A stretch of 64,000 bases of DNA, taken from positions 1,216,001 through 1,280,000 of the forward strand of contig OZ246001.1 of NCBI GenBank assembly GCA_965230295.1, read 5' to 3'. The notes beneath the pieces are model-generated. The model saw only the letters and a list, made by a program, of their open reading frames with translations, was not told the DNA's origin and made no database searches. Position numbers and translations under genes: made by a program. How positions within the stretch are numbered: position 1 is the stretch's first letter; each line of letters opens with the position of its first letter. Shown in pieces: positions 4,173-46,910 of the stretch. Origin of the DNA: Marinicella sp. Its GTDB lineage: Bacteria; Pseudomonadota; Gammaproteobacteria; Xanthomonadales; Marinicellaceae.

Positions 4173-6977
4173 TCATGGGCTGTGGGTCAATAATCGCCGC
4201 CAACTGTTGACATTCATCGACGTCACAATCAATTGGTATTGCTCAGGGTTGATACTGGACTGTGTGGTCAACAATTTCGCATATTGTTTGATCACCTGTT
4301 CATCTTGCATGATTTCCCGGTCTTCTTTCCATGCTGGAATCTGTGTCCGCATGGCTTGTAACAAGCGCAACATGTTTGACAACTCCTGTATCGCCTCATC
4401 GTGTTTGTTCTCATGCAACAAGCTTGCTGCTTGTTTCATGGTTGTGGCGAAGCGGTGGGCCAATACATTTTTCATCACATTCAGCTCCAAGGGTGAAAGT
4501 TGATTGGATCCCATGGCCAAATCCAGGGTTTTGCTGCTGCTGGCGTTGCGCAAGTAGATCAGGTCTTTGTACTTGGCATTCACTTCCACAACCGGTACAG
4601 CCTGGCGGCTACCGCTGTGATTGACCAACACATCCAACAGCACCACATGAGTGTCGCCTGCAAAGAAGCTGGGGATCACCATTTGGATGCCGTCTTCGTC
4701 TTCTCCCCGATCAGCTTGGATGCCGAGGTTTTTGGCCATGCGTTGATCCAGACTTTGTTCGGCCTCCCTGACTTGTTGTGCCTGGGCATCATCCAGGGAA
4801 TAAGAACCCAGCACATCGACCAGTTGCACGCCTTCAGCCAAACGGATTTGTAAGCGCAAGGCCCTGGCTACGGCCCGGGATGCTGCCATCATTTCGGCCT
4901 GAATCACCCGCTCGGCATCATTGACACCGGTCATCACCCGGCTATGCCCTTGTCCTTGTAAGGCCAATCGTTCCAAAGGATCGCGTTGGAAAGCGTCACC
5001 CATGGCCAAGGTACTGAAGGTGATGCCTTCGGTGGCATGGCGATGCACCGCATGTTCCAATGGTTTGGTTACCAAGGCATTGCTGTTGGCAGAAACCAAC
5101 CAAACTGCACTGGAACCCAACACGGCATTGGGGTCGTCCTGGGTTTTCAGCCATTGGGTGGCCGCTTGGATGCTCTGCTCCAGGCTGACGTGGGTTTGTT
5201 CAACTTCAACTGGTTTGGTGAACAAATTATTCAACATCACTTGAATGGGGCCATGCCTGAAATCACTGGCTTGGATCAACTGCCCCCCACCTGCGCCGGT
5301 GAAGAACACCGACACTTGGTCAGAAGATCTTTTGTTTTTCAACAAGGCATCCAGCAGTGCTTTCAGTTCGTCTTGGACGGGTTGCTCACCCAGGTCCAAG
5401 ACCAAGGCCAAATTCAAGGCTGAACGGTGGCCCCCTTTTTGTTTGCCTGCTTGCAGACCCACTTGTAGCCGCATGCGGGTGGGGCCAGTGGCCTCCAGAC
5501 TGTTGCGATCACTGTTCACATACAAGGCCAGGGCCGAGTTACTGGGTGCATCAAAAGGCTGTGCGTTTTGTCTGACTGCAGGCAGTTCAAGCGAACTTGA
5601 TTGTGCCAATTGCGCTTGCAGCCAACGCATGTTCGAATCACCAGGAATGTAGGTGTTGGCCCAATAACCAGTGGCGGCTTTGAAACTCAGACCTTCGGTG
5701 TTGGCCAGCTGGTCCAGGTAGGTTTGAGCATCCCTTTGTCTGATTGACAGCGGCGCCTGTTCTACCGCAGCAGATTCTTCGGTCATTTCGACATCAGATC
5801 GTTTGATCCTGGAACCAGTGACTCTGATGCGCTCTGTCACCACATCGTCTTGCTCATCATCCCGACCTGCCCCTGCCAAGTTCGCTTGACGGTTGTCTTT
5901 GCGCAGGTAGCCTTTGTTGGCTTCGTCCAGGCTTTGACGCCGCGGTGCGGGGGCGTTGTTACTGACCAAACCATCTGCTGGCATGCTGTCTGCTTTCAGC
6001 TTGGCTTGCTCTTCTCTTTGTGCACGAAATTCTGTTTCTCTTTTAGAATCAACTTGAGGTGAAACTTTTCCAACTCGATCTACACCCAACTCTTCTAAAG
6101 ATCTGTTAACATGTATTTGGTCTTTTGAAATCGGACTTGAGAATTCATTTCCAGATATAACGGATTCATCCAAATCAACTGCATCAGGCTTAGACTCCTT
6201 CTTCTTTTCAGCCGCTTTGGCTTTGTCTTCAAACCAGGCTGCTTCCTGACTGGATTCGGCTTCTTCTATCATGGCACCAAGTTTCGGCTCGGTTCGAGTT
6301 AACATGTCCATATCCGGGGATTCACGCAACAGATCCGGCATGGGTGGCGCAGCCAAATGTGGTATGGCTTCAGTCGCAGGTTCGGGGGTAACAAAAGCAC
6401 CGGGCTCAGTCCCTTGCAGTTGCTTCAGTGTTTCACCTACTGAAGCTGACTCACTAGGTGCTGCCACATTCATGCTTTGAACCCGTCTGTTTCGTTCGAT
6501 GTTCACTTCATCAATGTCCACCAACTCTACGGTGATGTCATCGACGGCCTCACCTTCAGGGTCTATCCATGGGGTTTCTTTCGATGCCTCGGGTTTGGCC
6601 TGTTCAGTGGCAACCGTGACTTCACCGAAGTCACCCTGGAATTCAGAAATGGTGCCGTCGTACAACAAACCGACCACAGCCACCAGCACAAAAGAGGCGG
6701 CCAGGCCTGAGGCCCATTGTTGGTTGATTCTTTTGCGGTTGACCGGTTGGTTGTTGTTGGCTTCTTGTTGGACCGCAGCCAAAGTCCTGGCAAACACGTC
6801 ATCACTGACATCGTGTTCGGGCAGTTGGTCCACTTGCTGTTGTAGGCTCAATAAGTCTTCATAATAAGCCGCACATGCACTGCATTGCTTAAGGTGTTGT
6901 TCCAGAGCTGGATCCTGGATGGTCATCGACACATCCAGATCGAGCAGCTGCTGTCTGATGTGATCGCATTTATTCAT
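4173..6977 (-). CDS. putative zinc-binding anti-sigma factor fused to a periplasmic degenerate vWA domain
   Basis: N-terminal C...HLKQCSAC (HxxxCxxC ZAS motif), one TM helix, acidic linker, LNLALVLD vWA-like strand; start overlaps the sigma factor stop. Confidence 0.8.
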   Translation of the reverse strand: MNKCDHIRQQLLDLDVSMTIQDPALEQHLKQCSACAAYYEDLLSLQQQVDQLPEHDVSDDVFARTLAAVQQEANNNQPVNRKRINQQWASGLAASFVLVAVVGLLYDGTISEFQGDFGEVTVATEQAKPEASKETPWIDPEGEAVDDITVELVDIDEVNIERNRRVQSMNVAAPSESASVGETLKQLQGTEPGAFVTPEPATEAIPHLAAPPMPDLLRESPDMDMLTRTEPKLGAMIEEAESSQEAAWFEDKAKAAEKKKESKPDAVDLDESVISGNEFSSPISKDQIHVNRSLEELGVDRVGKVSPQVDSKRETEFRAQREEQAKLKADSMPADGLVSNNAPAPRRQSLDEANKGYLRKDNRQANLAGAGRDDEQDDVVTERIRVTGSRIKRSDVEMTEESAAVEQAPLSIRQRDAQTYLDQLANTEGLSFKAATGYWANTYIPGDSNMRWLQAQLAQSSSLELPAVRQNAQPFDAPSNSALALYVNSDRNSLEATGPTRMRLQVGLQAGKQKGGHRSALNLALVLDLGEQPVQDELKALLDALLKNKRSSDQVSVFFTGAGGGQLIQASDFRHGPIQVMLNNLFTKPVEVEQTHVSLEQSIQAATQWLKTQDDPNAVLGSSAVWLVSANSNALVTKPLEHAVHRHATEGITFSTLAMGDAFQRDPLERLALQGQGHSRVMTGVNDAERVIQAEMMAASRAVARALRLQIRLAEGVQLVDVLGSYSLDDAQAQQVREAEQSLDQRMAKNLGIQADRGEDEDGIQMVIPSFFAGDTHVVLLDVLVNHSGSRQAVPVVEVNAKYKDLIYLRNASSSKTLDLAMGSNQLSPLELNVMKNVLAHRFATTMKQAASLLHENKHDEAIQELSNMLRLLQAMRTQIPAWKEDREIMQDEQVIKQYAKLLTTQSSINPEQYQLIVTSMNVNSWRRLLTHSP

Positions 6978-7596
6978 GGTTGACTCCTGATGGACGCACT
7001 TGGGTTTCAGGCGCATTTTGTTGGGCCTGAAAAGCCGACAATAAAGTTTGTCGAGCACGTCTGAGTTGTGATTTGATGGTGTTGATGGGCAGCCCCAATG
7101 CGGCCCCCACTTCTTTGATTTTCATGCCCTTAACAACAGACAATGTAAAGGCTTCCGCTTGGGCTTGTGGCAGCTTGATTACAGCCTGTTCCAACCAGTT
7201 GATGGTCTCGTCCAATTGTGCTGATTTTTCAGGTGTGGGCTGCTCGTCTTCAATCGTCTCGGCATCTTCTATTGCATAGCCCTTCAGTTGCTTTTTTCGT
7301 TGGAAATCTCGCAATGTGTTGACTGCAATGGTGAAAATCCAGGGACCCAAGGGTCGATTGGGTTGGTAGGTATGAGCGGCTTTGTGGATTTTTAGAAAAA
7401 TCTCCTGAAACACATCGTCTCTTTGTTGTGACTCCAAGCCGTGACGGACCAAAAATGAGTAGAGTGGTTTGCGGTAGGCTTGCATCAGTTTAACAAAAGC
7501 CTGTTGATCACCCCGCAAATGAGCAGCCAGCCAGGTACGCTCTTCGAGATCCACCACTCGGGGTTCGGTTTTATGTTGGCTGGTTAGTTGCGGCAT
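6970..7596 (-). CDS. ECF RNA polymerase sigma factor (sigma-70 family)
   Basis: GDQQAF, DVFQEIFLKI, WIFTIAVN region 2; LPQAQAEAF...GLPINTIKSQLRRAR region 4; alternative GTG start at 7605. Confidence 0.92.
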   Translation of the reverse strand: MPQLTSQHKTEPRVVDLEERTWLAAHLRGDQQAFVKLMQAYRKPLYSFLVRHGLESQQRDDVFQEIFLKIHKAAHTYQPNRPLGPWIFTIAVNTLRDFQRKKQLKGYAIEDAETIEDEQPTPEKSAQLDETINWLEQAVIKLPQAQAEAFTLSVVKGMKIKEVGAALGLPINTIKSQLRRARQTLLSAFQAQQNAPETQVRPSGVNHE

Positions 7597-7677
7597 GGTT
7601 GGCACTGTCTGTTTTCAAGCTGTACATACCCCACTATACCCCTGCCAACCAAAAAGGTTGCATTTTGAGTGAAAAAA

Positions 7678-8280
7678 TTACTGACAGCTTTTAACTTCTT
7701 GTTGAACAGCTTGCTCATCCACCACATAACACTGGTCTAACATGGAACAATAACAGGCCTCAAAGCCAAAATCAAAACGGATGTCATTCAACAACTCCCA
7801 CAACTCACTGGTGTCTTCAGCATATTTGAATTTCAGAAACACATGCACATCTTGACCGGCAATGATGGTGTTGGTCAAAGGACTGGTAATGAACCAGGGT
7901 AATTCGCCAGCGGCCTGCTTTTCTTGGGTATAAAATTTCTTGACCACCGATTCACAACAATCATGTAACAACCTGAAAATATTGGGGTAGGATTTATTTC
8001 GATAACTGAATTCAACAGAGCGTATCAAAGCAGGCCCAATGCCGGCATTTTTCAAGGAAAAATTGATCACCCTTTCATCGTCTCCCATGGCATTGCCATG
8101 TCCATATTGCAACATCGGCAAGGTCATGGCTTTGACTTGCTTGTTGGCGGCATCGGCTTGCAAATAAGTGGCATAGAAAGAAGCGGCTGAAATCAAAATG
8201 GCACACACCGCAATGATAAAGTTCAAACGTTCACCACTGGGTTTTTCAGTTTGGTGAATAATCTCTTCGGGTTCTGACAT
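7678..8280 (-). CDS. hypothetical membrane-anchored protein
   Basis: 200-aa ORF, N-terminal TM, C-terminal CYCS..C motif. Confidence 0.7.
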   Translation of the reverse strand: MSEPEEIIHQTEKPSGERLNFIIAVCAILISAASFYATYLQADAANKQVKAMTLPMLQYGHGNAMGDDERVINFSLKNAGIGPALIRSVEFSYRNKSYPNIFRLLHDCCESVVKKFYTQEKQAAGELPWFITSPLTNTIIAGQDVHVFLKFKYAEDTSELWELLNDIRFDFGFEACYCSMLDQCYVVDEQAVQQEVKSCQ

Positions 8281-39109: not shown

Positions 39110-40003
39110 ATGACTGGCATTGATTTACCCAAAGACATCATTTTTGAAACCCGTTATGGCAACATAGCCGGCTTACAATGGGGTAAAGGCAACACCGAAT
39201 CAGTTCTGGCCCTGCATGGATGGTTAGACAACGCCGCCAGTTTTTGGCACCTGGCACCTTTGTTGGCAGCCCATGACATGGAAATCACAGCGATCGACTT
39301 TCCTGGCCACGGTCACTCAGACCACCGTGCTCCAGGACACAATTACGGCTTCATAGATTACGTGATGGACTTGCAGGCCGTGTTGCAACAAATGGAGCAG
39401 CCGACCACCTTACTGTGTCATTCCATGGGTGCAGCCATAGCCGTCATGTATGCGGCGGCTTTTCCCGAACATGTCAAACAGTTGGTATTGATTGAAAACT
39501 TAGGACCTGTGCCGCCCTTTCAACCAGGCAAAGCAGCAGAATCATTGCGAGAGGCATTGAAACTTTGGGGTAAGCACAGTCTAGAGCATAAACGCTTTTA
39601 TTCAGACATCGATAAAGCCATCAAAGCCAGACAAGAAGCGACACCGATTGATACAGAAATCATCAGACCCATGGTTGAACGCGGTTTGTGTCAAACCACC
39701 CAAGGCTATCACTGGCGAACCGATAAGCGTTTGCGGTTACGCAGCTTTTTCAGGATGGCTGAAGAACAAATTCAGGAGTTTTTGGCCGCCACCCAAGTAC
39801 CCGCTCAACTGATCATTGCAGAGCCCAAAACATACGCCTTGCAATACCCCATGGTTGATGCCCGCTTAGCTGCACTGGACCCAACCCGGTTTGATCAAAT
39901 TCCAGGCGATCATCATTTACATATGGGCCAAGCCAAGCTTGTATCCGAAGCCATATTGGCCTTCCTCAACCGCACTCAAGATAACAGCAGTGATGCAAGC
40001 TGA
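39110..40003 (+). CDS. alpha/beta hydrolase
   Basis: LHGWLDNAASF, CHSMG, GDHHLH. Confidence 0.9.
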   Translation: MTGIDLPKDIIFETRYGNIAGLQWGKGNTESVLALHGWLDNAASFWHLAPLLAAHDMEITAIDFPGHGHSDHRAPGHNYGFIDYVMDLQAVLQQMEQPTTLLCHSMGAAIAVMYAAAFPEHVKQLVLIENLGPVPPFQPGKAAESLREALKLWGKHSLEHKRFYSDIDKAIKARQEATPIDTEIIRPMVERGLCQTTQGYHWRTDKRLRLRSFFRMAEEQIQEFLAATQVPAQLIIAEPKTYALQYPMVDARLAALDPTRFDQIPGDHHLHMGQAKLVSEAILAFLNRTQDNSSDAS

Positions 40004-41141
40004 TTTTCCAGATTTATTGGATCAACACATGCGCAGGATCCGAGCCAGCGCTTCGGCAGTTGCTTTGGAAATCGGGATGAGTCGAGAAGCCGTAAACAAT
40101 TGGCGCAGGGGGTATTCCAAACCAAGCAAGAAACACCGCGACAAGGTGGTTGCTTGCTCAAATTACCTGCGATTAAGTGAAGCGGAATGCAATGAGTTGT
40201 TGGCATCCGTCGGTTTTGATCACGAATATGCCCTGTATCAATCCACCAACCAGTCCCAAGACCACTTGTTCATCCAGCTGGAACAGGCTCAACCATACCC
40301 CATATTGATGGTATTGACTCAGGACCACCTGGACCAACCTCCACAAAAACAACTGATCGTTGAGGCGGCTCAAACCAAATACCCTGATCGCCAGACCCTG
40401 CACGTCCAATTACCTTATTCAAACAACATCACAGTCGCTGATTTTTTTCACTTCATTGGCCAGCAAATGGGATTGATGCAGGTGCATGATGAATTGAGCT
40501 TTGAATTTGCTCTTAATGATCTATTACAGGCCACTGAAATCAATTTGATCATCACCCGTTTTGAACAAGGTAACCAAACATGTCGCAACCTGTTATCCGG
40601 CGTTTTAAGGAATTTATGCGAAATGCACGTCGGACGAATTCATTTGGTTCTGTGTGGCGGCGAACAACTCTCGGCTTTGAAATACGCACAAGGCGATTTA
40701 TCTTTATTGAACATTGCCAGTGCTTACATGATGACTTTTGATTTGGCTCAATGGCTGGCCGTTCAAACAATCATCAATCATTCATTTGATCACCATCAAG
40801 TGATGTATGAACTGATAGGAAATCACCCATCAATGGCCTCTTCCTTATTTGCCGCCATTCAAGAAGGGCACGATCATGAAGCACTCATACAAATGGTGAT
40901 GAACAGTGATGTGCTGTTCAGTGATTTCAATCAAGTCATCCGACAGTCCGGTAAAGCCCCATTGCAAGAAAAATTAACTGCTGACGGTCTGGGACCTTAT
41001 CGACCTTACATCCAAGACCCGGTGCTGCGCCAATTGTTTTGGTTGAATTTAATTGGTAAGAATCAAGACAATCAGCTGGTATGGCATTCAGATACCATCC
41101 GACAGGTGGGCATTAATTTGTTGGCAGAACAATCACTTTGA
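39993..41141 (+). CDS. Xre-type HTH fused to a degenerate (probably inactive) STAND-like NTPase
   Basis: VALEIGMSREAVNNWRRG HTH; NTPase-like strand order with no GxxxxGK; GNHP motif. Confidence 0.7.
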   Translation: MQADFPDLLDQHMRRIRASASAVALEIGMSREAVNNWRRGYSKPSKKHRDKVVACSNYLRLSEAECNELLASVGFDHEYALYQSTNQSQDHLFIQLEQAQPYPILMVLTQDHLDQPPQKQLIVEAAQTKYPDRQTLHVQLPYSNNITVADFFHFIGQQMGLMQVHDELSFEFALNDLLQATEINLIITRFEQGNQTCRNLLSGVLRNLCEMHVGRIHLVLCGGEQLSALKYAQGDLSLLNIASAYMMTFDLAQWLAVQTIINHSFDHHQVMYELIGNHPSMASSLFAAIQEGHDHEALIQMVMNSDVLFSDFNQVIRQSGKAPLQEKLTADGLGPYRPYIQDPVLRQLFWLNLIGKNQDNQLVWHSDTIRQVGINLLAEQSL

Positions 41142-43258
41142 AAGGCGATACATCGATCCAAAGAATCTTACTGATCATTGTGCTCAGCGTTTTGACTTTG
41201 CCTTATGTGATGCAAGTACTGTTGTCCCGAGGCAGCTTGTTACCTGATGAAGCCGAATTAGAAACCTTACAATGGTTCACTGAATTGAAAAGCATCAGAA
41301 ACCTCGTCACCCATCACCAAAATCAAACCAACCAATGGCCACAATCGCTCAACGAACTGATCTACAACTTTGGTAAACCCCGTTACCAAGAACTGGATCT
41401 TTCGATTGAATTTCAAATCACCAGCACACCCGGTAAGCGCATCAAAAGTAACGAATTACAAGGCTCACAAATTGTTTTGAAATATGGCACTGGTTGGCAC
41501 TGCGTGCCTGATAAAACGACCATTCCTGATGCCTACAAACCCATCGAATGTGGCGGTTCATTGCGAAGCACAACCCAACGTTCTTTACCATCGGAAAAGA
41601 CCATGCACATCATTGCCATCATTGCCCTGCTGGGCATTGTGATTGGGGTGGTGTTTTATCACCCAACCATCAGATTATTGCGAGGTCGTGAATTCTCCTT
41701 AGCCACCCAAAGATTGGTGGATCTCAGAAAGCTGTCTCTGTTAACCCGGTTATCAGGTTTACAACCCAACATCCTGCAGGCCAATGATTTGAACAGCCGG
41801 TCCTGGCAGAAGGTTGCTACTTTTCGGTCATTGCCTGCGAAACAAAAGATCAATTGGTTCAAAAGGGTGTGGCCTACCCAACAGATTAAAAATGTCAAAC
41901 CCCAACTGTTTCATGTTCAACTCGACCCTGAGTTTGTATTGAACATGGATAATTTGTATCTCTACATGGCTGACAAGGGCATCAGCATCAATCGCATCAA
42001 AAGCCACCTCAAGCAAGCCAACATAGACCATCAAGCAGTGCTGATTTGGGCAGAAGACCCGGCATTGAGCCAACAATTACAAGTTCATCGGTCTCGGTTC
42101 CAACAGCCCGTTCTACTGCCCAACCAACAGCAAATGACTCAGTTACTGGTGGCCAAATATGCCAGCCAAACATGGATTGATTTGATGGTCTCATTCCTGC
42201 CGATCAACCAATTGTCTCCTTATCAGGGCAAGGGCGGGATTTTAAAATCCAGCCACTTCTATGGACGCGAGCACATTTTAGATCAACTGAAAAACAACAC
42301 CCAATCGTGCTTCTTGTTGGTCGGTGGTCGACAATTGGGTAAGACATCGATTCTCAAAGCTTATGAACGACTGCTGAAACATTCAGCCAGACACCACTGT
42401 TTTTACATTTCCATGTCTGATGATCGATTAATGGCCAGGTTGGCGTACCACTTAAAGATCACTGAATATGCTGATTTGACAGACTTGCTCAACCAATACC
42501 ATCAACTCAATCCTGGTATTGAGTTGGTCTTGCTGCTGGATGAAACAGATCGATTCATCGCGACTGAAGTGACCCATGATTTTCCTTTGTTGGCAGAGGT
42601 TCGCGCGTGTGCTGAACAAGGGTTGGGTCAAATGGTGTTTGCCGGTTTCTGGGATTTGTATGCCAGTGCTGTTTTGGATTACCAGTCACCGATCAGAAAT
42701 TTTGCTGAAGTCATCACTGTAGGCGCTCTTCAAGCCATGCCAGCCAAGCGCTTATTAACAGAACCCATGACTGTTCTGAAACAGCATTACAGCAACCAGG
42801 AAGTGATTGAATATGCGTTGAACCAAACCGGCCATCGGGCCAATTTACTCAACCTGATTGGTGAGTCTTTGGTCGAACAACTGGCCCAAAAAGCGCAGCC
42901 AATCGATCAGACAATGATTGATGAAGCCTTACAAAGTCAGACCATGTTTGATGCCTTACAAGGCTGGTCCCAATTGACCAGAGATCCTGATGCCTCTGCA
43001 TTGGACCGCATGGTTGTGTATCTGACATTTATCCATCAACAAATTGACTTGACACTGATCTTGCAGCATTTACAACAAGCTCAAGTCCCAATCGATGCTG
43101 AACAACTGAAACAAGCATTGCAGCGACTGCGTTTGGCCCACATCTTGGAAAAAAACAACGATCATTACTGTTTTTCAGTGCCATTATTTACTCAACAACA
43201 CAGCGTACAGGAAGCCAAGGCCCTGTTAGCACAAGAGTGCCAAAACCACCACAGTTGA
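41138..43258 (+). CDS. pilin-like domain + TM + STAND-like AAA ATPase + winged helix
   Basis: QWPQS...WHC...IPDAYKPIEC pilin pattern; SPY...FYGRE, GGRQLGKTS Walker A, LLLDETD Walker B; TTG start overlaps the upstream stop. Confidence 0.8.
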   Translation: MKGDTSIQRILLIIVLSVLTLPYVMQVLLSRGSLLPDEAELETLQWFTELKSIRNLVTHHQNQTNQWPQSLNELIYNFGKPRYQELDLSIEFQITSTPGKRIKSNELQGSQIVLKYGTGWHCVPDKTTIPDAYKPIECGGSLRSTTQRSLPSEKTMHIIAIIALLGIVIGVVFYHPTIRLLRGREFSLATQRLVDLRKLSLLTRLSGLQPNILQANDLNSRSWQKVATFRSLPAKQKINWFKRVWPTQQIKNVKPQLFHVQLDPEFVLNMDNLYLYMADKGISINRIKSHLKQANIDHQAVLIWAEDPALSQQLQVHRSRFQQPVLLPNQQQMTQLLVAKYASQTWIDLMVSFLPINQLSPYQGKGGILKSSHFYGREHILDQLKNNTQSCFLLVGGRQLGKTSILKAYERLLKHSARHHCFYISMSDDRLMARLAYHLKITEYADLTDLLNQYHQLNPGIELVLLLDETDRFIATEVTHDFPLLAEVRACAEQGLGQMVFAGFWDLYASAVLDYQSPIRNFAEVITVGALQAMPAKRLLTEPMTVLKQHYSNQEVIEYALNQTGHRANLLNLIGESLVEQLAQKAQPIDQTMIDEALQSQTMFDALQGWSQLTRDPDASALDRMVVYLTFIHQQIDLTLILQHLQQAQVPIDAEQLKQALQRLRLAHILEKNNDHYCFSVPLFTQQHSVQEAKALLAQECQNHHS

Positions 43259-43956: not shown

Positions 43957-44478
43957 ATGTTAAAAATTAAAGTCAAAGACAGCACCCACCAAGTCATCTC
44001 TGTAATCAGCAAATACTTATGTATCATCGGATTCATTGGAACCGTTGGATTTTTTGGCTACTCGATGATTAAAAATTATCAGGAAGCGACCACCATCTTG
44101 AATGATGCCCAAGTGATTGATGCGGATTTGATGTTGACTGATGTGACTGTTGAAAGTGGTCGCAAAGGCCGGTCCAAAAATGTTTATGAGTTCACTTATT
44201 CTTATGAAGCTGGCGGACAACTGTATGAGAAGTCTTTCACCACCAGTGAAAACAACGCCGATAAATACGTTGATGAAACCACCATCCCGGTGGCCTATGC
44301 CAAATCCAATCCAGAACTGTCCGGCAAACTCAAGCAACTGGAGAAAAACAGCAGCATAGGCAGTTTAACCTGGCGTGGATTGGTGGCCTTGTTGGGTTTG
44401 ATGTTTCTAGCCGCAGTGATACATGGCATCATCACCGGTGTCTTGTTCATCAACAAAGACAATCCAGAAACCGAATAA
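43957..44478 (+). CDS. DUF3592-like membrane protein
   Basis: TM - YEFTYSYEAGG...IPVAYAKSNP - TM. Confidence 0.65.
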   Translation: MLKIKVKDSTHQVISVISKYLCIIGFIGTVGFFGYSMIKNYQEATTILNDAQVIDADLMLTDVTVESGRKGRSKNVYEFTYSYEAGGQLYEKSFTTSENNADKYVDETTIPVAYAKSNPELSGKLKQLEKNSSIGSLTWRGLVALLGLMFLAAVIHGIITGVLFINKDNPETE

Positions 44479-44538: not shown

Positions 44539-46041
44539 TCAAGATTTCACATCTTCTTTAGTTACCCAGATTTCTGTGCGGTTGTTCCGATAACGCCCCA
44601 CTTCACTGTCATTGCTGTCGATGGGCAACTGATTGCCCAAAGCGATTATTTCCACATTTCTGATCCCCCTTTGTTTCAACTCATAAGCCAACAACTTACT
44701 GCGGATGAAAGCCCGTGTTTGGTCGGCTTTTTCATTCTGAGATTCACCCGCCGAAAAACCGATTAAAGTGATTTTCTTGTGCGGTGTTTGATTCAGGTAA
44801 GTCACCAGGTGATTGATGTCTTGAGCAGACTTGTTGTCAATTTCTGCTCGGTCAGATCGCATCCTAAAGGTGGTGGAGAGCCGAACTCCGTTCAATGCAA
44901 TTTGCTGATATTTTATTGGAAATTCATGATCAATATAGGGCAGCGTGCTGGTGATTTTTTGTGGTATAAAACTGACTTGCTCAACCAATTGTTGTCCTGT
45001 GCCCGAAACAGCAAAATCTATCAACCCCGACACATGACTGTTTTCAGAACGTTCTTTATTGGCATACAAAAACAAACGCCGACTGAGGGCATAATCTTCT
45101 GAACTGATTGAAAACTGTTTGGGCTCGATGGCGGCAATCCCCACATCAGCAGATACTTTTAGAATCATGTCTTTTGAGGCATAGGCCAAACCGGTAAAAC
45201 CAATTGCTGATTCGTCAAGAGCCACTGATTTCGCCAACAACTCATTGGATTCATATCGGCTGGCTGGTGCCAGCTGTTTGTTGTATTTTTTTAATACCAG
45301 AGATTTAAAAGTATCATAGGTTCCAGATTGGTCATCCCTGGCATACAATGACATGGGTAAATCTTTTCCTCCTAATTCGGACCAGTTGGTTATTTCACCC
45401 GCAAAGACCTTTGACAATTGATCCACTGTGATAGTTTTTATTGGGTTGCCGGGATGGGTGATGATGGCCAGGCCATCCAATGCAATCACATGTTCGCTTT
45501 CCGAATTGGTCATGTCACCATATTTGATCAACAAATCTAAATTCTCACTGTGTTTAATCCGCCTTGAAGACATCGCCACATCGGTTTTGTTGGCAATCAA
45601 GGATTTGAATCCCGTACTTGATCCATGAGCCTTGATTTCTATGGCCACCACTTTGTTCTGATCTGGCAAAAATCCAATGACCTGCATTTCATTTTCGGTG
45701 GTTAAAGGCTTGCTGATGGTGACCTCTGAACCCAGCTGTCTGATATAGGCTGCAGCCAATGCAGGTGCCAATTTGTCACCAATGGTGTTTGATCCATCCA
45801 TACGTAAAATGACTTCTGCTTGGGCAGTTAACAAATCTGGAGGGGCGAGGCGCGTGGCGGTTTTCTCGACAACTGGTGTTTGGGTTTCAGTTTGAAAGAC
45901 CTCTTGCTGATCAACGGCTTCATCATCGGGATGATTCTCTGTAAAAAATTTAAAATAAAAGACAATGGCACCGAAGATCAAAAAGGCAACGATGAGGATT
46001 TCAAACAAATAACTTTTGATTTGATTCATGACAAAGAACAA
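44539..46041 (-). CDS. PstS-like substrate-binding domain + OmpA-like domain protein
   Basis: DGSNTIG, AHGSSTGF, RDDQSGT; C-terminal GRYRNNRTEIW. Confidence 0.88.
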   Translation of the reverse strand: MFFVMNQIKSYLFEILIVAFLIFGAIVFYFKFFTENHPDDEAVDQQEVFQTETQTPVVEKTATRLAPPDLLTAQAEVILRMDGSNTIGDKLAPALAAAYIRQLGSEVTISKPLTTENEMQVIGFLPDQNKVVAIEIKAHGSSTGFKSLIANKTDVAMSSRRIKHSENLDLLIKYGDMTNSESEHVIALDGLAIITHPGNPIKTITVDQLSKVFAGEITNWSELGGKDLPMSLYARDDQSGTYDTFKSLVLKKYNKQLAPASRYESNELLAKSVALDESAIGFTGLAYASKDMILKVSADVGIAAIEPKQFSISSEDYALSRRLFLYANKERSENSHVSGLIDFAVSGTGQQLVEQVSFIPQKITSTLPYIDHEFPIKYQQIALNGVRLSTTFRMRSDRAEIDNKSAQDINHLVTYLNQTPHKKITLIGFSAGESQNEKADQTRAFIRSKLLAYELKQRGIRNVEIIALGNQLPIDSNDSEVGRYRNNRTEIWVTKEDVKS

Positions 46042-46133: not shown

Positions 46134-46910
46134 TTAGCCACCAAAAAAACAGCCCGGCATGGTTGATTGGATGTCTTCAAAGTCTCGTGAAGTACATTGC
46201 CACACCAATTGGTGGTTTCTCTCTCTGGGAATCAATACGATCTTGCCACCATCAACACCTGATTTAGCTGTGTATTCAATGGTGATGCGACCGCCTTTAG
46301 AAACAGCTATTGATTTCACTGTGTCATTGGCATAAGACTCAGGTCTGGGTAACCTTAACTTGGTGTTTGAATCTGGAAAACGTCCTTCCATCATATAATA
46401 TTCAGCCACATAGGTTTTGATCATCACTCCAGTTTGTAGTCCGGACGCCCGATAACTGGCATGCAATGCTTGTTTTTGTAGCACTTCATATTGAGCTTTC
46501 ATCTGTTGTTCTTGCTGTTGTTTCGCTGCCAAATCTTCAACCACAGCATCCAGTGTTTCTATTTGTCCTTCAATCACTGTGGATTGTTGCTTTGATTCTT
46601 CCATGCGCTGTTCAATCGCTTCAGACTGACGTTTGGATTCTGCCAGGCGTTGATCTAATAAATCACTTTGCTGCTCAGTCGCTTGCAATTGTTGTTCAAG
46701 GATTTGGGCTTGATTTTCCGCGGCTTCAATCAAAGCTTGTTGTTGATTTACTTGTTCAGCATCCTGAGTGCTGACTGACTTTTGTAACTGTTGTAAAGAC
46801 TCGTGCAGTTGATTCCGTTCTTCTAGCCACTGGCGTTTTTGTTGGTGATTGTCATACAACAAATAAGTCACTAACAGAAGTAATAGGCCTGCTGTTATCT
46901 TGATGTACAT
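46134..46910 (-). CDS. membrane-anchored coiled-coil protein with C-terminal type IV pilin domain
   Basis: KTYVAEYYMMEGRFPDSN...GRITIEY...WQC...PGC; long Q/E coiled coil; no prepilin GFTLIE motif. Confidence 0.8.
   Translation of the reverse strand: MYIKITAGLLLLLVTYLLYDNHQQKRQWLEERNQLHESLQQLQKSVSTQDAEQVNQQQALIEAAENQAQILEQQLQATEQQSDLLDQRLAESKRQSEAIEQRMEESKQQSTVIEGQIETLDAVVEDLAAKQQQEQQMKAQYEVLQKQALHASYRASGLQTGVMIKTYVAEYYMMEGRFPDSNTKLRLPRPESYANDTVKSIAVSKGGRITIEYTAKSGVDGGKIVLIPRERNHQLVWQCTSRDFEDIQSTMPGCFFGG

Follow-up and report, generated by a model that had tools for sequence, protein, structure and literature searches.

Two overlapping genes in a 64,000-nucleotide stretch of the Marinicella sp. 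genome (contig OZ246001.1, positions 1,216,001 to 1,280,000 of the forward strand; hereafter the window, with coordinates counted from its first letter) encode a helix-turn-helix (HTH) protein, gene 1, and a membrane protein with a pilin-like head and a nucleoside triphosphatase (NTPase), gene 2. We consider it rather probable that the pair is a kinase-free signalling unit, in which gene 2 is a transmembrane receptor of the STAND class (signal transduction ATPases that have numerous domains) and gene 1 is an adaptor that joins an inactive STAND domain to a swappable output. The observations behind this reading are the domain folds, the topology signals, the strict pairing of the genes, the swapping of sensors and outputs among relatives, and a predicted interface that passed its controls.

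39993 to 41141, forward strand: gene 1, 382 amino acids, HTH plus inactive STAND-fold protein, putative adaptor (open reading frame and translation)
41138 to 41141, forward strand: TTGA, the start of gene 2 over the stop of gene 1 (read from the sequence)
41138 to 43258, forward strand: gene 2, 706 amino acids, TTG start, putative membrane receptor-NTPase (open reading frame and homologues)

The original prediction had described the two genes as translationally coupled, and the TTG start of gene 2 indeed overlaps the TGA stop of gene 1 in the TTGA. The same 4-base overlap was present in many related loci, e.g., L014, L015, L016, L018, L022, L067, L086, and L087. The motifs quoted in that prediction were all found in the translations (ELKSIRNLV, NQWPQS, LQGSQIVL, GWHC, IPDAYKPIEC, FYGRE, GGRQLGKTS, LLLDETD, and GNHP). 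The 5' end of gene 1 overlaps the 3' end of an upstream alpha/beta-hydrolase gene, which ends at 40003, by 11 bases. The start of gene 1 is supported because F5 and L9, within its first 12 residues, are conserved in the alignment of homologues.

The pairing was nearly without exception. In 78 of the 80 gene 1 loci obtained from a pattern scan of species genomes, gene 2 with its pilin head lay directly downstream on the same strand, and the two misses were contig ends. Conversely, gene 1 was found directly upstream in all five genomes carrying gene 2, and the pilin-type metagenome loci were paired likewise (10/10). The co-occurrence on which the original prediction could have failed was thus borne out at these loci and genomes.

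The features of gene 2 are as follows.

41156 to 41236, forward strand: N-terminal hydrophobic helix resembling pilin alpha1-N, gene 2 residues 7-33 (hydropathy, model, profile)
41237 to 41587, forward strand: type IV pilin-like head, predicted periplasmic, with conserved WP and C122...C138, residues 34-150
41594 to 41662, forward strand: second transmembrane helix, then an R/K-rich cytoplasmic stretch, residues 153-175 (hydropathy, model, sequence)
41663 to 42217, forward strand: conserved cytoplasmic linker, common to the WD40 and NHL receptors described below, residues 176-360
42218 to 42817, forward strand: P-loop NTPase core (ISPYQGKGG, FYGRE, GGRQLGKTS, LLLDETD), residues 361-560
42818 to 43255, forward strand: helical and putative winged-helix end (TGHRANL, QGW, LDR..VY), residues 561-706 (conservation)

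The hydropathy of gene 2 peaked at residues 7-25 and 155-173, and the model placed helices at 7-33 and 153-174. The two hydrophobic helices, the cysteine pair, and the R/K-rich stretch fit a topology with both termini inside and a periplasmic head. The model of residues 1-180 had a predicted local distance difference test (pLDDT) score of 85.8 and consisted of a long helix and a four-stranded sheet, with helices at 7-33 and 38-64 and strands at 84-87, 93-98, 112-116, and 120-122. This is the layout of the type IV major pilins (PilE, PAK pilin, FimA), in which a hydrophobic N-terminal alpha1 helix leads into an alpha-beta head that contains an antiparallel sheet, a WP motif, and a C-terminal disulfide loop. 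The loop has its counterpart in C122, which was invariant, and C138, which was kept in at least 90% of 20 gene 2 sequences, the disulfide itself being predicted. When the modelled N-terminus was searched with Foldseek, the first 14 rows (ranks 1-15) were all type IV pilins. The six best matches of the gene 2 family profile to the Protein Data Bank (PDB) sequences were type IV pilins as well; the best was PilE (E 1.1e-3), where residues 13-137 of the query aligned with 10-134 of the pilin and both "WP" and "W.C" fell in register. The window protein itself gave no match to Pfam Pilin (PF00114) at E ≤ 1, and P0009, a homologue with 40% identity, scored 25.8 bits against a cut-off of 22. These results from the profile, Pfam on the homologue, and the model with Foldseek indicate that the head of gene 2 is pilin-derived. 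Together with hydropathy, they also bear out the predicted two-cysteine pilin-like domain between two transmembrane helices.

Type IV pilins are made with a class III signal peptide, which has G at -1, F (or M) at +1, and E at +5 and is cleaved by prepilin peptidase. This site was not conserved in gene 2, as the original prediction had held for the G/FTLIE sequence. The window protein starts with LKGDTSIQR; among the homologues the residue before "DTS" was G, S, P, H, A, or Q, no F was present at +1, and +5 was K or R instead of E. A further difference from the major pilins is that the chain runs on after the head, in the same reading frame, into the second transmembrane helix and a cytoplasmic region of 530 residues, and gene 2 therefore cannot polymerise as a pilin. 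The head was also the fastest-evolving part of the protein, with a mean pairwise identity of 36% compared to 69% for the NTPase (77 sequences).

In line with the original prediction, gene 2 carries an intact NTPase in its cytoplasmic part. GGRQLGKTS and LLLDETD are present, the Walker A and Walker B residues (G396-K402, D468, E469, and D471) were invariant in 20 homologues, and Pfam AAA_22 reached 28.5 bits against a cut-off of 27. Pfam nSTAND1 (PF20703) did not match the window protein at E ≤ 1. In eight relatives of gene 2, the nSTAND1 score was above the cut-off of 27.1 bits in four (P0009, P0012, P0143, and the L111 receptor), below it in two, and absent in two, and in P0009 the match extended to residue 665. 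Judged from these sequence matches, the NTPase appears to be nSTAND1-like. The linker gave no Pfam match, and a Protein Atlas search of residues 176-365 returned a best score of 0.85 and no family.

Gene 1 consists of two parts.

40029 to 40217, forward strand: XRE-type HTH, gene 1 residues about 13-75 (sub-threshold HTH_3, alignment, model)
40284 to 41138, forward strand: AAA+/STAND-fold domain without Walker A or Walker B, residues about 98-382 (model, Foldseek, alignment)

Among 2905 candidates, 236 homologues of gene 1 were found at E ≤ 1e-3. Across families, the HTH stretch MRRIRASA...EIG.SRE..NNW was nearly invariant among 25 aligned homologues, whose sources include Marinicella, Pseudomonas, Stenotrophomonas, and Acidovorax. 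Pfam HTH_3 (PF01381) scored 17.3 bits on gene 1 against a cut-off of 23, and a precomputed PF13560 assignment existed for one homologue. HTH domains of the XRE/Cro-C1 type are five-helix bundles. The AlphaFold model of gene 1, built on the 25-homologue alignment (pLDDT 88.7), begins with five helices (residues 5-71), after which comes an alpha/beta domain. In Foldseek, this C-terminal domain matched ORC2/Cdc6, the PF01637-type ATPases 2qen and 2fna, and MuB, and further matches were plant resistosomes of the NLR type (nucleotide-binding proteins with leucine-rich repeats) and Avs3/Avs4; 27 matches had E ≤ 1e-3, of 1211 at E ≤ 10. The alignment showed that both Walker motifs are lost (no GK[ST], no hhhhDE), the equivalent strands reading "PYPIL..Q.H..QPP" and "SRFEQG", while the GG/NHP motif is kept as "GNHP", just as the original prediction had described. 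No Pfam family matched the C-terminal domain, a PDB sequence search with the gene 1 profile gave nothing below E 0.17, and NCBIfam had no meaningful match. From the Foldseek matches and the loss of Walker A and B, the domain is identified as an inactive AAA+/STAND-fold domain that has no Pfam family of its own.

The complex of gene 1 with gene 2 residues 176-706 was modelled. Its interface score (ipSAE) was 0.67 compared to 0.00 for the best control, and 58 of 80 solved complexes attained this mark, as did 2 of 110 mismatched pairs. The model runs agreed in at least 82% of contacts, and the pLDDT of the partner was at least 82. In the modelled interface, the invariant R206, E210, and K230-I241 of gene 1 lie against the nucleotide site of gene 2, which contributes R398, Q399, T403, Y423-D428, D468, E469, and D471. 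Conserved residues were enriched on both sides, with 16 of 36 interface residues compared to 108 of 382 overall in gene 1 (p = 0.022), and 16 of 37 compared to 73 of 531 overall in gene 2 (p = 4e-6). The predicted complex supports binding of gene 1 to gene 2, and the NTPase heteromer of the original prediction passed the controls as a model.

The same core was found with other sensors and other outputs. A search of 1.84 billion representatives with the receptor profile gave 4319 matches at E ≤ 1e-3 and 377 clusters at E ≤ 1e-30. Beyond close relatives, the matches began at profile position about 150-160, which is the second transmembrane helix, in proteins of 560-1993 amino acids. A hydrophobic segment lay 200-300 residues before Walker A in 110 of the 125 representatives with a Walker A motif, and in 103 of these 110 it was preceded by more than 60 residues (median 413). 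WD40 propellers were detected in 28 of 40 long members scanned, one receptor carried NHL repeats, and some had no ectodomain. At 13 of 14 non-pilin receptor loci, all from metagenomes and with at least 1.5 kb of upstream DNA, a gene-1-like partner was present upstream on the same strand; the single locus without one had 1.6 kb upstream, probably still belonging to the receptor gene. The partner adjoined the receptor in L095, L096, L099, L110, L111, and L135. Pfam scans of 10 of these partners gave TIR_2 above the cut-off in five (L095, L099, L110, L135, and L159) and below it in L096, and a weak HTH in three (L094, L104, and L111). The L130 partner (6951-8192, forward strand), upstream of a WD40 receptor, showed neither TIR nor HTH and began with two strongly hydrophobic helices, a sequence feature that makes a membrane-acting output possible. 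A profile of the partners found at least 35 proteins, with TIR in 34 of 35 among the matches listed, and the range of partner outputs is a lower bound. The gene pairs with swapped sensor domains that the original prediction had proposed to look for therefore exist: the same receptor module occurs with WD40, NHL, or no ectodomain, and the HTH of the partner is replaced by TIR or transmembrane helices. Both sensor and output are swappable around a constant core of transmembrane helix, linker, and NTPase plus the inactive-STAND domain, which places the pair among the conflict-type STAND systems.

Three further observations were made on these relatives. At L121 (7013-9565, forward strand), two tandem HTH-type gene 1 paralogues (E 4e-84 and 2e-97) lie upstream of one receptor fragment. 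A short PPLVPEGE-type motif is common to many WD40-type receptors just past the predicted signal peptide (P0143, P0176, P0184, P0212, P0260, P0271, and the L130 and L094 receptors). At L094 (6209-9301, reverse strand), an open reading frame of 1030 amino acids lies between the HTH-type partner and the WD40 receptor; judged by eye, it may consist of TPR repeats and a CHAT/caspase-like end.

Under the receptor-adaptor reading, the pilin-derived head of gene 2 would be held in the periplasm between the two transmembrane helices and connected by the linker to a cytoplasmic nSTAND1-like switch. Gene 1 would serve as adaptor and output, its inactive domain docking on the receptor NTPase as an adjacent AAA+ subunit does and turning the invariant R206, E210, and LKY..GDLSLLNIA towards Walker A and Walker B of the receptor. 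A periplasmic or membrane signal at the head may then cause NTP-dependent assembly of receptor and adaptor, and this assembly would bring the N-terminal domains of the adaptor together (induced proximity). For the window locus, the gathering of XRE-type HTH domains would alter DNA binding and transcription, and in relatives the gathering of TIR domains or membrane helices would lead to NAD+ cleavage or membrane damage. TIR domains and XRE HTH domains both act as oligomers, and their interchangeability would be explained by induced proximity because of this. We infer the direction of signalling, the oligomerisation, and the induced proximity, as well as anything said here on a ligand or a regulon.

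Several points weigh against this reading. The modelled interface resembles an AAA+ subunit contact, and its score may partly reflect solved AAA+ assemblies. Since the conserved residues of gene 2 gather around the nucleotide site in any case, the enrichment is inflated. Paralogy between the two NTPase-like domains at the sequence level was rejected, as the hhalign alignments of gene 1 with gene 2 had E 0.17, and their likeness is claimed at the fold level only. The Foldseek E-values of the pilin matches to the gene 2 head are weak (0.02-0.7), and the window proteins lie below the Pfam thresholds for Pilin, nSTAND1, and HTH_3. In the wider family, an N-terminal hydrophobic segment was present in 56 of the 103 proteins, and the topology of the WD40 ectodomains comes from a hydropathy scan alone. 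At 6 of the 13 partnered non-pilin loci, the partner did not adjoin the receptor open reading frame as called but lay 1-5.7 kb away. Finally, no operator or regulon was found, gene 1 overlapping the hydrolase gene and the upstream regions showing no common palindrome.

All domains of life are known to have cytoplasmic sensors built on STAND/NLR-type switches, and the entry of outside signals into bacteria is attributed to histidine kinases, anti-sigma factors, chemoreceptors, and ToxR-like proteins. If the proposed mechanism is true, an extracytoplasmic domain coupled straight to a STAND switch and a dead paralogue-like adaptor would be a new route across the membrane, and bacterial immune-type NTPases would gain a way to see the envelope. 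The pilin head would be a tangible example of how a filament subunit is put to new use in sensing. With its 377 clusters the receptor family is large, and it is modular; as the small size of the pair would allow its transplantation, the idea is directly testable.

Two parts of this architecture are already in print, the pairing of an active and an inactive STAND gene (PMC8195603) and, in one mention, "transmembrane STAND ATPases" (PMC12642450). Of the described systems, nSTAND2 comes closest (Kaur et al., 2021, eLife, PMC8195603): its operon joins two adjacent genes, one for an active and one for an inactive STAND protein; the partner with eroded NTP-binding motifs carries the variable effector, and a hetero-multimer was proposed. 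The effectors in the part of that paper available to us are GT4 and HEPN, compared to HTH, TIR, and transmembrane helices here, and that part describes no transmembrane receptor or extracytoplasmic sensor, unlike gene 2. It also places the nSTAND2 clade close to CR-ATPase, S29, and RNA12, unlike gene 2, some relatives of which match Pfam nSTAND1; Pfam scans of the present proteins returned no nSTAND2 model. The iSTAND and iSTAND2 proteins (Kaur et al., 2020, 2021) are like gene 1 in joining an inactive STAND domain to N-terminal signalling or effector-associated domains in conflict-type systems. As far as the available text goes, these systems require MoxR and vWA partners, and the inactive STAND is the proposed sensor in them, whereas here it carries the output. 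No MoxR or vWA was found by Pfam among the window neighbours, and none was seen among the conserved neighbour clusters of the 80 loci, some of which were inspected by eye.

Avs and bNACHT (PMC13581612) share the P-loop switch, the variable sensor, and, in relatives, TIR-type effectors, and the fold of gene 1 matches Avs3 and Avs4. In the available text, each of those is one cytoplasmic protein by which phage proteins are sensed within the cell, unlike the present pair, where the sensor lies outside the cytoplasmic membrane and the output is on a separate inactive paralogue-like protein. The Esr pathway of Actinomycetales (Wang et al., 2026, preprint, PMC13622651) is a precedent for coupling an extracellular sensor of a conflict-type system, with WD40 as sensor, to a transcriptional response when a threat arises at the cell surface; in the portion available, it is built on MoxR, vWA, kinase, and FHA rather than on a STAND receptor and an inactive-STAND adaptor. 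The "transmembrane STAND ATPases" resemble gene 2 in combining a STAND ATPase with transmembrane segments in a defence context, and the available part of PMC12642450 describes Pepco-protease fusion partners or sensors and no pilin head, inactive-STAND partner, or HTH output. The EACC1 "membrane-associated two-gene system" was rejected as a likeness, since it has a different architecture of transmembrane peptide and caspase in the accessible text (PMC7159879). PADLOC-DB 2.0 gave no full-length system match, only PDC-S01 at E 8.6e-5 over gene 2 residues 373-470, and the TIR and WD40 relatives matched PADLOC by their TIR and repeat parts only. In full-text literature, supplements aside, neither a pilin-headed STAND receptor nor a transmembrane STAND receptor with an inactive-STAND partner was found; two eLife source-data sets may list such proteins. 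Within that scope, the statement of the original prediction that no system of this architecture has been described still holds.

Regarding the biological role, a further-reaching reading, which we hold to be less likely than not, is that the pair represents a widespread and so far undescribed class of transmembrane NLR-like receptors (pilin, WD40, or NHL sensor, transmembrane helix, linker, and STAND) with inactive-STAND adaptors, and that the window form would monitor pili or pilus-borne invaders at the inner membrane and reprogramme transcription. A sensor of the pilin pool or pilus state, or of an unrelated ligand, is also possible. The link to pili and phages that the original prediction had drawn was not seen in the data. 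The context of the pair is housekeeping: its neighbours in the window are hydrolases, UppP, a TPR protein, and a PBP-OmpA protein, syntenic across Marinicella, and no gene 1 homologue was present in 72,556 plasmids or 50,697 phages. The integrated-decoy idea likewise found no support in the sequence. When the head was compared by BLASTP with the two canonical pilins of its own genome and with three other pilin-domain open reading frames, all E-values were above 1, and a recent copy of an own pilin was rejected.

An unlikely alternative is an envelope-level anti-phage or anti-invader sensor, whose pilin head would detect a pilus-dependent phage or damage to the pilus machinery and whose HTH would trigger protection, for example by shutting down pilus genes. 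The TIR and membrane-helix outputs of the relatives are of kinds common in immune systems, the head is the fastest-evolving part, and the NTPase stands close to the nSTAND1 clade, whose name comes from conflict systems in the available text of PMC8195603. The distribution is patchy too: the pair was present in three of the 400 class-level genomes, G346 among them being unpublished, in 6 of 24 Marinicella, and in 8 of 41 genomes of the genus of L087. However, it was present in 27 of 41 genomes of the L022 genus, and the gene tree largely follows families, with 11 label changes compared to a minimum possible of 8 and Pseudomonas nested among betaproteobacterial sequences. The locus also lies outside a defence island, the lack of a full-length PADLOC match and of plasmid or phage homologues argues the same way, the head is unlike the pilins of the genome, and a nearly invariant HTH is unusual in a component of an arms race.

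It seems still more doubtful that the pair is a housekeeping sensor, with the head reading the membrane pilin pool of the cell or the state of its type IV pilus or type II secretion machinery and the HTH tuning genes of surface behaviour. PilS has been reported to sense PilA, and the head of gene 2 retains the whole pilin layout, including the membrane helix of pilin-pilin contacts. The mostly vertical inheritance, the high frequency in some genera, the stable chromosomal context, and the pilin heads in at least three other non-canonical proteins of the same genome also agree with such a role. On the other hand, no linkage to pilus genes was found in the 80 loci, and the relatives with TIR outputs do not fit homeostasis. 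Co-occurrence with pili is uninformative here, since to our knowledge type IV pili are to be expected in all host taxa.

That gene 1 is a mere local regulator or antitoxin-like partner and gene 2 an autonomous membrane ATPase with another job is highly improbable. An XRE HTH gene placed upstream of and overlapping a second gene is typical of regulators and antitoxins, and the translational coupling agrees with this. However, TIR or transmembrane helices can take the place of the HTH with the inactive STAND domain retained, and an enzyme would not stand in for an autoregulator. In addition, the C-terminal domain, which is large and conserved, is predicted to dock on the NTPase site, and no intergenic region for an operator exists upstream of gene 1 in the window. 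Between 38000 and 44700 of the window, promoter-like sites did not exceed shuffled sequence (9 compared to a mean of 11.8), and terminator-like sites were weak. In the Lysobacterales loci, sigma-70-like promoters were seen upstream of gene 1 by eye. A shared operator was rejected, as the 130-250 bases 5' of gene 1 in 78 loci, judged by eye, had no common palindrome.

Besides the pair that we favour as receptor and adaptor, other genes recur at these loci. No conserved third component was found among the 80 loci; the recurring genes encode only a DUF3592 protein and small, lineage-specific membrane proteins, and neither kind was counted in the system. The DUF3592 membrane protein (Pfam E 8.5e-7) is encoded at 43957-44478 of the window on the forward strand, and its homologues adjoin the pair in 14 of the 80 loci, downstream in Marinicella and directly upstream in Stenotrophomonas, Dokdonella, and Pseudoxanthomonas-type loci. 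A role as an accessory component that is lineage-specific is possible. In the Comamonadaceae loci L019-L083, the stretch about 200-600 bases upstream of gene 1 encodes two small acidic membrane proteins on the strand of the pair; one recurs in 51 and the other in 37 of the 80 loci. An ankyrin-like protein of 476 amino acids follows the pair in 15 of the 80 loci and is, like the small acidic membrane proteins, lineage-specific. At 44539-46041 of the window, on the reverse strand, a protein of 500 amino acids is encoded with a phosphate-binding-protein-like domain (PBP_like_2, E 1.5e-27) and a sub-threshold OmpA-like C-terminus, and it is syntenic in three Marinicella loci.

Further pilin domains were found in the same genome. 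The reverse-strand gene at 46134-46910 of the window encodes 258 amino acids with an N-terminal transmembrane helix, a long coiled-coil-like stretch rich in Q and E, and Pilin (PF00114, E 8.9e-11) as its C-terminal domain; a prepilin leader is absent, and the protein is conserved near the pair in Marinicella L014 and L016. Two more non-canonical pilin-domain open reading frames lie near 2.854-2.856 Mb of the genome (L177, 1-1797, and L178, 1222-1770, both on the forward strand). The frame of L177 has at least 598 amino acids (724 amino acids of open frame) and ends in an alpha1-like helix and a pilin head, and that of L178 encodes a protein of 182 amino acids with a pilin-like head. The two canonical pilins of the genome, at L174 and L175, have KGFTLIE leaders. 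Pilin heads thus seem to serve the Marinicella host as reusable modules, with at least three non-canonical proteins carrying them besides gene 2.

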